Assembly (NCBI RefSeq): GCF_054482525.1 | Contig: NZ_CM137006.1 | Length of the DNA stretch: 64,000 nt | Direction: 5' to 3' (one strand) | In this document: piece by piece, positions 50,963 through 63,996 of the stretch | Position numbering within the stretch: position 1 is the stretch's first letter | How the letters are laid out: each line of letters opens with the position of its first letter | Position numbers and translations under genes: made by a program | Notes under the pieces: model-generated | Told to the model about the DNA's origin: nothing | What the model saw: only the letters and a program-made list of their open reading frames with translations | Database searches by the model: none

Positions 50963-51174
50963 CTTATTGATTTAAATGGTGCGATAATAGGAATATAACA
51001 CACCACATATATTCTTTGATAAATATGACTATTTTCTTGTTTCATCTTTATAAATGCCCCCTTTTGTGCCCCCACCTTGTTTTTCATGCGACTCGATGAG
51101 ACTTTCATCGAGTCGTTAATCTCATCAAATTCTTCACGTATCGTGGAAACCTTCGCAGATCTCCATCCCCTCAC
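50953..51174 (-). CDS. Hypothetical small protein coupled to the toxin gene
   Basis: 73-aa ORF whose ATG overlaps the toxin stop (ATGA). Confidence 0.3.
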
Positions 51175-61309: not shown

Positions 61310-61431
61310 CACGGTTCCTCTGAAATAAAAAAAACGGCAGAACAATGGAGTTCAGCCGTTAATGAGGTATGTTCAGGGTAATGATATATATCTGTTTCTT
61401 TTTCAGATAAACCCGCGCAATCGATTAGAGA

Positions 61432-62490
61432 TCAGGAATGCGCCCTGACTTTTTCTGTTTTTACCATTAATCCGGCATACTCACGTTCAATAAGTGAGGA
61501 CATTAAATCTGACTCAGACTCACCATATATTTCTGACAGTCTGGCGAGTTTCTTTTTAGTTCTGGCTGAAATTTTTATTGTCATATCGTTCTCTTTAGAC
61601 TGTCTGCGAAACAGTTTCTGATCCCAGGCTTTTTGCAGTTCACCCATCAGGACTGCTTTATGTCGCAGGGGAGAGCGCGGAAGCGTCAGTAAATCAGCGA
61701 AGTTCTGACTCATTTTTTTTCGATTTCCCTTTAAATAACTCAGTTGCTCATGAGTCCAGCCCTCCCACTGATCAAAAGTAGCACAAATAAAAAGCCAGCG
61801 TTGATAGTTATTCAGCGGATTTATCGGAGGGCAAACCGCCTTCTTTTTCATCAGGTTCCATACCCACAAGCACTGTTTTTCATCATTGATATCCAGCCAT
61901 GAAAAAGCTTCAGGAAAGTCACCACAGGCCTGTCCCCATGCAGTATTTATTGCTTTTATTAGCTTGCGCCGGGTTTCAGTTTCTGCATCACAGAGTTCTC
62001 TTAATACACACTCAAAAACATCATCAACTCCAGTTGCCATTTCCCTCATGAATGGTGAGTAAATCCCATTGGCGTAATAAAAATCTGGCGGCATCATCTT
62101 TTTTGGAGTGGACATTTTACCCAGGGTTGATTTTTCAGAAGCTGATTCAAGGTTTGTGTTTAATATGTTTTCTAACAGCTCATCACCTTCATAACCCTTA
62201 CCTTCATTTGTTTGATTAAAATTAAATTCTGGCATCATTCCTGGAAGTGTTGCTGCTTTATTTTTTTCAATACTTAGCTCAATTGACTCCGTCCCCAGAG
62301 CCCTAGCAGATATCTGACTGGGTTCGTCTATATGATCCTGGCGAACAACTGCTGACCTCCACTCACTCAGAAAACGAGCAATATAGAAAAAATAGAAACA
62401 TGCGGCACGGGGATTTTTATCAAGCCACCTCAGCTTCTTTTTTAATAACTTGTATTTTTCTTGAGCGCCCAGCGCCTTCTCTTTGCTCAT
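61432..62490 (-). CDS. Hypothetical protein (352 aa), no recognisable motifs
   Basis: Long ORF with a Lys-rich N-terminus, upstream of the GTPase on the same strand. Confidence 0.5.
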   Translation of the reverse strand: MSKEKALGAQEKYKLLKKKLRWLDKNPRAACFYFFYIARFLSEWRSAVVRQDHIDEPSQISARALGTESIELSIEKNKAATLPGMMPEFNFNQTNEGKGYEGDELLENILNTNLESASEKSTLGKMSTPKKMMPPDFYYANGIYSPFMREMATGVDDVFECVLRELCDAETETRRKLIKAINTAWGQACGDFPEAFSWLDINDEKQCLWVWNLMKKKAVCPPINPLNNYQRWLFICATFDQWEGWTHEQLSYLKGNRKKMSQNFADLLTLPRSPLRHKAVLMGELQKAWDQKLFRRQSKENDMTIKISARTKKKLARLSEIYGESESDLMSSLIEREYAGLMVKTEKVRAHS

Positions 62491-63466
62491 TATTCACCCA
62501 GATTCAGTTTCCATTAATGATGTCATTATGATGTAAAACCATAGGCAATCAACAGGAAAAAATGTAATTTCAAGAGTGAGTAATGATGAATCAATGTATT
62601 TTTTTCGTAGTAGATTCGTAGTAAGATATCGCGTGGCAAAACACTAATTATCAACAGGTTGTAAGTGCTCCCTTCCTCAGACTACCATTACCAATATGGG
62701 ACTGCAGTATGAAGACCCTGGCATGTGAAGTTAAACAACAACGACATGACATTCGTGATGTTGCCATGCGTTGGGGAGTGCAAATCAAACGACCTGCGTC
62801 ATTCCTTCATCAGGATTTCTGCTACCCTGATAGGGTCAGCACCTCCGCACACTTCGTGACAATCGCAACATCAGATGACACCCGATGCGATTGCTGATAT
62901 CGCATTCGTGTTGTTTTCGATAATTAAGGTTAATTAATAATATAGTGCATAGTGCCTGCCCTTTCTCATCCATGCCCCATTTTACCCTTGGACCGTGTTT
63001 CAACATATTTACATTCAGTACCTGTTTCTCCACGCGCTATCTTCCCTGCAAAAAAAAACAGTACCAGGCAATCCTTTGAGCAAAAACCAAAGGATTACTG
63101 AAATACAAAAACACTACCCATCTTTCCAGAATATTATCCCTGATGATTGCCTTCTCAACATGATTAATCACCACCTTAATCAGATGCTGGAACGTTACTC
63201 AAAGATTCTGGCTTTTCGCATGGACTTCAGTTACCGGAAAGGAATCAATAGGTATATCCGTAATTCCGCCCTTGAAATATAGGATGTTCTTCGCGAGTTA
63301 ATGCCATCCATTTTAACCAAAGATGCGTCTGTGGCTGTTTTTGGGCGTTAGAATGGACAAGAGAAGGTGCAGTGCACTCACATGCCATTTTTTATATCAA
63401 TGGACAAAATCATAAGAAATCATTCCCTTTTGTACTGGAGGCAAAAAGCATGTGGTTAAAAATCTC

Positions 63467-63490
63467 GAAGGAAGAAGGAAGAAGGAAGAA
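63467..63490. repeat. Tandem 7-bp purine repeat GAAGGAA x about 3.4
   Basis: GAAGGAAGAAGGAAGAAGGAAGAA in the non-coding stretch upstream of alpA. Confidence 0.7.
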
Positions 63491-63783
63491 TAAAATGGTG
63501 TCCGGCGGATAGTTATCACAGGGATACTATAAACAGAATAGTGGAATAAAAAAATGAGGTTGATGTGCAGAGTTTGAGACGGATAGCCAGCTATCAGACA
63601 AAAGAAGACCAGAAATATGGATTACCAATATGGGGATACAACGAAATTAATTTGCCCGCCAGACAGGGCAGACCGAGGAAGTTTAGTTAGTTTTTTACAG
63701 CAGCACCGGTTGCTATGCCGGAGTGGGTAGTAGTAATTCATCACTGGACTCCGGTACTTATTTAGCTACCGGAGAATCAAATC

Positions 63784-63996
63784 ATGACCAGTAAACCTTC
63801 CTTGTCCGAAGACCAGTTCGTTGATATGGCTTTTATCACCCGCCTGCTGGGGGTCAGCGATAAATGGATTTACCGACTCATTAAGGATGGCATATTTCCA
63901 AAACCCATCAAACTGGGACGAAGCTCCCGCTGGTTACAAAGCGAAGTCGAAGCCTGGCTGCAGGCCCGTATTGATGCATCCCGCCCTCAACACTAA
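63784..63996 (+). CDS. alpA: AlpA-family phage regulatory protein / excisionase-like (MerR-type HTH)
   Basis: 70 aa; MTSKPSLSEDQFVDMAFITRLLGVSDKWIYRLIKDGIFPKP... is typical AlpA. Confidence 0.8.
   Translation: MTSKPSLSEDQFVDMAFITRLLGVSDKWIYRLIKDGIFPKPIKLGRSSRWLQSEVEAWLQARIDASRPQH

Follow-up and report, generated by a model that had tools for sequence, protein, structure and literature searches.

What occupies the 1,293 nt that precede alpA at the right end of this stretch of DNA? The window (the whole 64,000-nt stretch that was analyzed) ends shortly after an alpA-like gene, and a sequence-only reading had taken the interval before it, 62491-63783, to be non-coding apart from a hairpin and a purine repeat. 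The chromosome of E. coli SCU-102 (NZ_CP051753.1) matches approximately the last 13.5 kb of the window, with no differences from ~50990 to the end. RefSeq/PGAP annotates no feature across 62491-63783 in that identical stretch, leaving a gap flanked by a 352-aa hypothetical gene (61432-62490, minus strand) and the alpA-like gene (63784-63996, plus strand). The complete interval is present in one of 5,426 complete E. coli genomes. As the earlier reading stated, the open reading frames are all short, those overlapping the interval reaching 95 aa at most in the frame listing. The longest are the following.

62995-63282, plus strand: open reading frame of 95 aa
Minus strand: open reading frame of 65 aa
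62709-62897, plus strand: open reading frame of 62 aa

Individual searches of the short frames against Pfam and NCBIfam returned nothing useful, and relatives came from a frame-stitched translation only. Comparison of the three forward frames resolved a single protein-like sequence with two frame changes and stop interruptions, of which the frames of 95 aa (62995-63282), 46 aa (63372-63512) and 41 aa (63565-63690) are successive fragments in two frames. The stitched translation returned 12 intact protein matches of 176-214 aa, named in their sources as either 'inovirus-type Gp2 protein' or 'rolling circle replication-associated protein', the best of which (P0001) shares 65% identity at E 2e-64. 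When P0001 was aligned back onto the interval by tblastn, the match covered 63037-63681 (E 1e-83), with the middle part readable in another frame only; by both measures the similarity to the Gp2/PF23343 family is full length. At the nucleotide level, a distant-mode DNA search showed 14 other E. coli genomes to have the gene in intact, annotated form at 65-73% identity, and the identity to the intact genes of E. coli ET358 (L003) and Combat11I9 is ~73%. Judged from these alignments, the right half of the interval is an unannotated, dead Gp2-type gene of a kind that normally stands just before alpA.

63103-63690, plus strand: pseudogene of an inovirus-type Gp2 / rolling-circle replication-associated (HUH-type) protein, ~192 codons if intact

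The sequence-only reading was correct in that the interval contains no intact gene. Its right ~45%, however, is pseudogene rather than intergenic or RNA-coding DNA, and the view that the short frames correspond to no known protein is overturned, the 95-, 46- and 41-aa frames being pieces of a decayed Gp2-type gene.

All five lesions were placed by nucleotide alignment with two intact E. coli genes (L002 and L003).

63103-63105, plus strand: lesion 1, start codon ATG changed to ATA
63280-63282, plus strand: lesion 2, nonsense change of CAG to TAG
Between 63326 and 63327, plus strand: lesion 3, 1-nt deletion giving a -1 frameshift
63467-63490, plus strand: lesion 4, 7-nt insertion equal to one surplus GAAGGAA unit
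63547-63549, plus strand: lesion 5, nonsense change of CAC to TAA

Removal of one heptamer unit gives ...KISKEEGRIKWCPADSYH..., which is equal in length to ...ITRSEGKIRWCHAESYH... of P0001. Because the -1 and +7 changes cancel, the original frame is regained after the repeat. The gene is dead despite this cancellation, as the start loss and the two stops persist; the intact reading frame that a functional family member needs is broken here by the ATA start, TAG, TAA, -1 and +7. Taken alone, the -1/+7 pair could be read as partial repair, beside which two nonsense codons and a lost start remain. Unusually fast decay was also considered and set aside: the nucleotide identity of the pseudogene to ET358 is 73.6%, as compared to 73.5% for the 352-aa gene, 84.6% for alpA and 84% for the GTPase gene, which gives no clear signal.

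The fragments might conceivably still be useful, for example as a truncated N-terminal peptide made from the 95-aa frame, which is open from GTG 62995 and includes ~60 well-conserved first residues of the family. That frame nonetheless lacks the H-x-H motif, the tyrosine and most of the fold discussed below; the family's own start codon is gone, and GTG 62995 lies upstream of the conserved leader hairpin with no evident ribosome-binding site. We consider a retained peptide function extremely unlikely.

The purine repeat falls inside this gene. The (GAAGGAA)n array noted previously is indeed present at 63467-63490 (plus strand), where TRF reports 3.4 copies with 100% unit identity. It is the only homopurine/homopyrimidine run of at least 18 nt in the 64-kb window, and is for this reason not a chance occurrence. 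The sequence-only reading also proposed a comparison of copy number among strains, which was informative. A search of metagenome contigs with a 24-nt flank recovered two more copies of the locus: L143, with 1 base different from the window in 3 kb and 3.4 units, and L144, with 10 substitutions in ~930 nt (~99% identical) and 7.4 units (52 nt). The other four lesions (ATA, TAG, 1-nt deletion and TAA) are common to L144 and the window, and the inactivation is therefore older than the split between the two alleles, since which the array has changed by four units. Such variation is in keeping with slippage once selection on the gene has ceased. We read the repeat as a replication-slippage tract that grew within a Lys/Glu/Gly/Arg-coding stretch of the Gp2-type gene and now grows and shrinks without consequence.

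A heptamer array that varies between near-identical loci (3.4 versus 7.4 copies) also calls to mind a contingency switch, in which frame shifting by phase variation turns the Gp2-type gene on and off. Every 7-nt unit shifts the frame, and the +7 of the window allele exactly offsets the -1 upstream. Against this, the ATA start, TAG 63280 and TAA 63547 are present in both alleles, and consequently no copy number reopens the frame. Moreover, intact relatives have no array at this position, and the tract is short (3-7 copies). Phase variation is thus very unlikely, and slippage in a dead gene remains our preferred account. As a natural variable-number repeat that differs at ~1% divergence (3.4 versus 7.4 units), the array could serve to mark strains carrying the island.

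What kind of protein was lost? With the stitched translation, the Pfam model PF23343 (REP_ORF2-G2P) scores 17.8 bits, below its gathering threshold of 27.8, and intact relatives are themselves borderline at 26.9-32.6 bits, two of four passing 27.8. A profile search collected 971 clusters at E <= 1e-3, among them proteins of ~350-400 aa that carry the Gp2-type domain as their C-terminal half. In a 46-member alignment, R39, D41, G78, E84, H92, H94, W118, Y162 and K165 are invariant; H92 and H94 form an H-x-H motif and Y162 is a catalytic-type tyrosine. The family also conforms to the HUH-nuclease fold. The codons for VHSHAIFY and SYQTKEDQKY survive in the pseudogene, in two different frames. No relative was found by tblastn in 50,697 phage genomes, nor by the Gp2-type profile in IMG/VR, and the 'inovirus' label is accordingly a remote one; plasmids hold distant paralogues at 33-41% identity. 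The family name 'Gp2/Rep-like' appears to rest on remote similarity. We infer that the gene belonged to an HUH-type, Rep-like island family with putative nicking or replication activity, whose protein may have acted as the nicking/replication initiator for the excised island.

Left of the pseudogene, the interval has a different character. Two features occupy its first part.

62491-62918, no strand assigned: poorly conserved spacer between the leftward 352-aa gene and the rightward operon
62884-62912, plus strand: terminator-like hairpin, directly upstream of the conserved promoter block

In E. coli ET358 (L003), the syntenic spacer aligns with this one at ~55% identity. Other loci have no counterpart of it, and searches against plasmid and phage collections returned no match. 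It contains a promoter-like site for the leftward 352-aa gene (62552-62525, minus strand, from the promoter scan) and a direct repeat of TTCGTAGTA present twice (62604 and 62615) with an 11-nt period, which also occurs in ET358. The 62-aa frame at 62709-62897 is not kept in ET358 and has no Pfam or NCBIfam match. The hairpin that the earlier reading placed at about 62884-62912 is present, with arms ATGCGAT (62885-62891) and ATCGCAT (62899-62905), a 7-nt loop and then the T-rich run CGTGTTGTTTTCG. Its fold of -11.8 kcal/mol (z = -2.3; 7 of 200 shuffles fold equally well) is modestly better than chance. The pattern scan for terminators picks it up; the stem has 8 pairs, of which 3 are G-C, and the T tail is interrupted. 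A comparable hairpin is weakly kept in L003 and absent in L002.

These observations bear on whether the interval is instead a non-coding or small RNA locus, with a transcript of the left half ending at 62884-62912 or a structured RNA before alpA. The terminator-like hairpin (z = -2.3) and the lack of any protein family match for the left-half frames would suit such a locus, as would the leader of alpA, which is strongly conserved and can form a long nested hairpin. The left half, however, is only ~55% identical to its nearest syntenic counterpart and is absent at all other loci, and the hairpin is lost in L002. An Rfam scan for small RNAs, which the sequence-only reading had proposed, came back empty: with E <= 1 as the limit, none of the Rfam 15 covariance models has a match within 62491-63783. 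Protein homology accounts for the right half, and the alpA leader, described below, has covariation no better than that of shuffles and a minimum-energy z-score of -1.8, with two incompatible folds that fit it equally well. An RNA locus is thus unlikely. We regard the interval not as an RNA locus but as an ordinary case of gene decay with a slippage tract, accompanied by an island operon's regulatory DNA.

Three short, conserved non-coding elements lie between the terminator-like hairpin and the dead gene.

62919-62946, plus strand: putative promoter/operator block GATAATTAAGGTTAATTAATAATATAGT, conserved
63052-63061, plus strand: AAAAAAACAG motif (A7CAG) of the Gp2-type 5' leader, with little or no variation across 14 aligned loci
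63070-63096, plus strand: 9-bp inverted repeat AATCCTTTG / CAAAGGATT, nearly invariant

Within the first, the palindrome TAATTAAGGTTAATTA (62921-62936) lies between -35-like and -10-like hexamers. Of the 19 loci that have the Gp2-type gene, 15 carry ATAATTAAGGTTAATT, with at most 1 mismatch, at ~150-185 nt before its start. The block overlaps the sole forward promoter-like site (TCGATA and TATAGT separated by 18 nt, a 9/12 consensus match), in a scan whose sites are as a whole no more frequent than in shuffled sequence. The 3' arm of the inverted repeat holds the Gp2-type Shine-Dalgarno sequence (AAGGA), and the hairpin folds at -12.7 kcal/mol (z = -4.4). A set of 12 distinct sequences has 97% of its cells paired; seven of the nine pairs are invariant, and the two outer ones differ between two lineages in both partner bases. 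In L136 and L137, two divergent E. coli loci, the 3' arm is different and the stem forms again, including a G-U pair. This pattern would fit a hairpin that limits translation of the Gp2-type (HUH) gene, though the invariance of seven pairs makes for thin evidence.

The second set of conserved elements lies on the other side of the pseudogene.

63691-63783, plus strand: alpA leader, a T-run followed by four CCGG-core blocks
63704, 63717, 63749 and 63768, plus strand: CCGG blocks CACCGGT, GCCGGAG, CTCCGGT and ACCGGAG, in that order
63784-63996, plus strand: alpA-family gene, 70 aa, intact (PF05930)

The identification of alpA at the window's edge is borne out by a match to Pfam Phage_AlpA (38.3 bits against a cut-off of 21, E 1.2e-9) and to a PHROG described as 'excisionase and transcriptional regulator' (E 8.5e-13). 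Between the window and L144, alpA has two differences, both synonymous, and the leader also has two, both within the variable stretch between blocks 2 and 3. More than 20 E. coli genomes match the leader over 88 nt at 83-86% identity. Across genera, the CCGG blocks are nearly invariant, the fourth including the alpA Shine-Dalgarno GGAG, and block 2 is separated from block 3 by 13-40 nt of freely varying sequence. Of 15 leaders, 10 have a nested hairpin as their minimum-energy fold; the other 5 form two side-by-side hairpins in which the Shine-Dalgarno sequence is paired. The two folds pair 87% and 90% of cells, respectively, and covariation does not exceed that of shuffles with nearly all pairs invariant; the near-invariance of the CCGG blocks is what makes covariation uninformative between them. 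In a search for paired ends or an origin, no second copy of the CCGG-block element was found in the island. The scan detected no sigma-70 promoter in the leader; inspection by eye shows TTTACA and, downstream of it, TATGCC, with a spacing of just 14 nt. An exact 14-mer of the leader gave at least 120 matching stretches in IMG/VR, and none among the matches listed is a leader; these are chance matches. An RNA switch, an operator and a single-strand hairpin are all candidates for the role of this element.

Extension of the window into SCU-102 (L001) places these elements in their island. Downstream of alpA are a hypothetical gene, a zinc-ribbon gene, a PF11726 gene, a RecQ-family helicase gene and dprA, followed by a cluster of SLATT, nucleoid-associated protein and GTP-pyrophosphokinase genes, a tyrosine integrase gene, tRNA-Thr and proA; seven other genes come before the integrase. 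The cluster beside the integrase may be defence cargo. A 20-nt stretch over the 3' end of tRNA-Thr (thrW) is repeated at L001 483-502, which has its counterpart in the window.

50974-50992, no strand assigned: distal att copy, 19 of 20 nt of the tRNA-Thr 3'-end repeat, with a 1-nt deletion in the window relative to SCU-102

A tyrosine integrase thus lies by the tRNA and a direct repeat of the tRNA 3' end lies at the far border, the arrangement of a tRNA-integrated island. The sequence-only reading had expected the integrase and attachment site just beyond the window. Both exist, the attachment site at thrW, yet one has to go 9.2 kb beyond the window to reach the start of the integrase gene and 10.5 kb to reach the tRNA, and the window itself contains the other att copy. 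Given the distal att copy at 50974-50992 and an integrase and tRNA 9.2-10.5 kb beyond the window, the island is ~23.6 kb long and alpA is internal to it.

How general is this arrangement? An intact Gp2-type gene lies 90-110 nt upstream of an alpA homologue at 12 loci in ten genera (Enterobacter, Yersinia, Citrobacter, Brenneria, Lelliottia, Buttiauxella, Hafnia, Rahnella, Serratia and Budvicia) and at 7 further E. coli loci. The neighbours of the E. coli relatives are as here: a hypothetical gene, a GTPase, a DUF932 protein, a DeoR-type regulator and a DUF4339 protein. E. coli strain 2273-PO3 is without the Gp2-type gene and keeps the alpA leader, and in MSB1_9D the Gp2-type gene is cut by IS903B. 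The gene is always found beside alpA, yet has been lost in three ways, through point mutations, deletion and an IS element. This suggests it is dispensable, or costly, in a resident island.

Drawing together what is established, namely the homology, the five lesions, the constant position by alpA, the polymorphic repeat and the conserved non-coding blocks, we conclude that the interval is very probably the front of a rightward two-gene operon (a Gp2-type HUH gene and alpA) of a thrW-integrated island, in which the first gene has decayed. From left to right, the proposed layout comprises a spacer shared with the divergent 352-aa gene, the promoter/palindrome block, the hairpin leader, the dead gene, the alpA leader and alpA. 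The block at 62919-62946 would be the operon promoter, alpA would still be transcribed through the pseudogene, and the ribosome-binding-site and leader hairpins may act on translation.

A broader interpretation can be placed on the same elements. The promoter palindrome, the ribosome-binding-site hairpin and the leader with four CCGG blocks could together form an undescribed control cassette, common to a widespread class of tRNA-integrated Enterobacterales islands, that co-regulates the HUH protein and AlpA and so couples excision with rolling-circle replication. The CCGG hairpin would then be either a translation switch for alpA or the site at which the HUH protein acts. We consider this doubtful; if it were true, the islands that have lost the HUH gene (this one and those of 2273-PO3 and MSB1_9D) would be ones unable to replicate after excision. 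The two-gene operon with a decayed first gene is the reading we retain. It accounts for a 1.3-kb gap in the annotation, which holds an unannotated pseudogene, and an empty stretch beside alpA in other islands of this kind may likewise hide a decayed Gp2-type gene. Current understanding is unchanged by this unless the regulatory cassette is functional. The conserved non-coding blocks are the only parts with some potential, as concrete targets for the control of alpA, the presumed excision activator.

The closest known systems are the intact genes of the same family, exemplified by WP_057107875.1 (E. coli Combat11I9) and WP_039026316.1 (E. coli S43). They occupy the same position 90-110 nt before alpA, are 57-65% identical to the pseudogene in protein and ~73% in nucleotide sequence, and have the same upstream palindrome block, ribosome-binding-site hairpin, alpA leader and neighbours. 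Unlike them, the copy described here is unannotated and carries all five lesions: a lost start codon, nonsense changes at two codons, a deletion of 1 nt and a repeat grown by 7 nt.

A second family shares the name but not the sequence. YagK and YfjJ (PF11726), of the E. coli K-12 cryptic prophages CP4-6 and CP4-57, resemble the pseudogene family in their NCBI-style name, 'inovirus Gp2 family', and in the kind of island they occupy. The present island has an intact PF11726 member 1.1 kb downstream of alpA (L001 14862-15473, E 9e-48). Kinship between this 'inovirus Gp2 family' gene and the pseudogene was considered and rejected, as the two have no similarity and belong to different subfamilies; neither the stitched translation nor its relatives match the PF11726 (YagK/YfjJ) profile.

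Further afield, comparisons with HUH rolling-circle nucleases (SIRV1 ORF119 Rep, parvovirus NS1 and AAV Rep nuclease domains) give moderate scores at 11-15% identity, and the Gp2-type family differs from these proteins in being without a helicase or other domain. The transposase gene of IS200 is preceded by a stem-loop that occludes its ribosome-binding site and, further upstream, by a terminator-like hairpin. By analogy, the Gp2-type gene is likewise an HUH-type gene preceded by a Shine-Dalgarno-containing hairpin and an upstream terminator-like hairpin. It has no sequence relationship to IS200, and an effect on translation is suggested here by analogy.

A parallel in gene layout lies in the tmRNA-integrated islands I23, I44 and I55 of Pseudomonas, which have a tyrosine integrase at one end and alpA at the other (PNAS 2025, PMC12595487). 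An inovirus Gp2-like ORF lies directly before alpA in these islands, which also carry RadC and phage-defence cargo (PMC12595487). The island described here is similar in having an integrase, alpA, RadC and Gp2-type genes; it differs in its host, in its thrW site, in an alpA that is internal rather than terminal, and in that its Gp2-type gene is dead. Because the Pseudomonas islands have it too, the pairing of a Gp2-like gene with alpA can be regarded as a recognised island core (PMC12595487).

The leader of alpA occupies the same place, directly 5' of the gene, in the related loci L002-L015 and L136-L140.

63691-63783, + strand: alpA leader

It carries four near-invariant CCGG-core blocks, which are conserved across ten genera. 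A variable loop separates blocks 2 and 3, and the fourth and last block overlaps the ribosome-binding site of alpA. Two alternative folds fit the leader equally well; covariation was looked for across the aligned loci and none was found, and an Rfam search of the leader returned no match. Two Rfam matches elsewhere in the window score far under the gathering score and are most likely due to chance.

61328-61409, - strand: CyaR, 24.8 bits, across the GTPase gene start and the spacer upstream of it
62191-62267, + strand: sroE, 19.5 bits, within the 352-aa gene described below

The Gp2-type gene upstream of alpA has been inactivated independently in two E. coli strains, 2273-PO3 (L138) and MSB1_9D (L142).

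L138 2655-3093: Gp2-type gene absent, alpA leader retained
L142 1436-2825: Gp2-type gene truncated by IS903B

Two E. coli islands carry a second Gp2-type paralogue farther downstream, and about 260 nt 5' of it lies a relative of the promoter/palindrome block at window 62919-62946, TTAATTTCGGTTAATTAATATAAT.

L138 4399 and L140 4541: TTAATTTCGGTTAATTAATATAAT block, related to window 62919-62946

Because a related block lies upstream of the second paralogue in both of these loci, the two Gp2-type paralogues may share a common regulator. A related block was also sought 5' of the PF11726 paralogue of the window island and was not found.

The leftward 352-aa ORF was assigned no family in Pfam and PHROG searches, and a weak BfmA/BtgA-like match at its C-terminus is the sole family match. 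Its homologues adjoin a GTPase gene in related islands. The homologue in E. coli ET358 is annotated 63 codons shorter, yet the tblastn alignment covers the full 352 aa.

61432-62490, - strand: 352-aa ORF, no assigned Pfam or PHROG family
62604-62623: direct repeat, two copies of TTCGTAGTA 11 nt apart, 5' of the promoter-like site of the leftward gene

ET358 has a similar CGTAGTA pair, and the corresponding spacer in 2273-PO3 contains CGTAG repeats. The TTCGTAGTA repeat is a candidate regulator site.

Compared with E. coli SCU-102, the distal att copy in the window shows a 1-nt deletion (TGGTGC-GATAA), and the window is therefore not strictly identical to the SCU-102 assembly.

50974-50992: distal att site, a copy of the 3' end of thrW

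Past the window end, in the SCU-102 extension (L001), two further groups of genes adjoin the integrase.

L001 19867-22441: SLATT-domain, nucleoid-associated-protein and GTP-pyrophosphokinase gene cluster; RecQ-family helicase and DprA pair

Both the cluster and the helicase/DprA pair look like island cargo, and these same genes may constitute a defence system.
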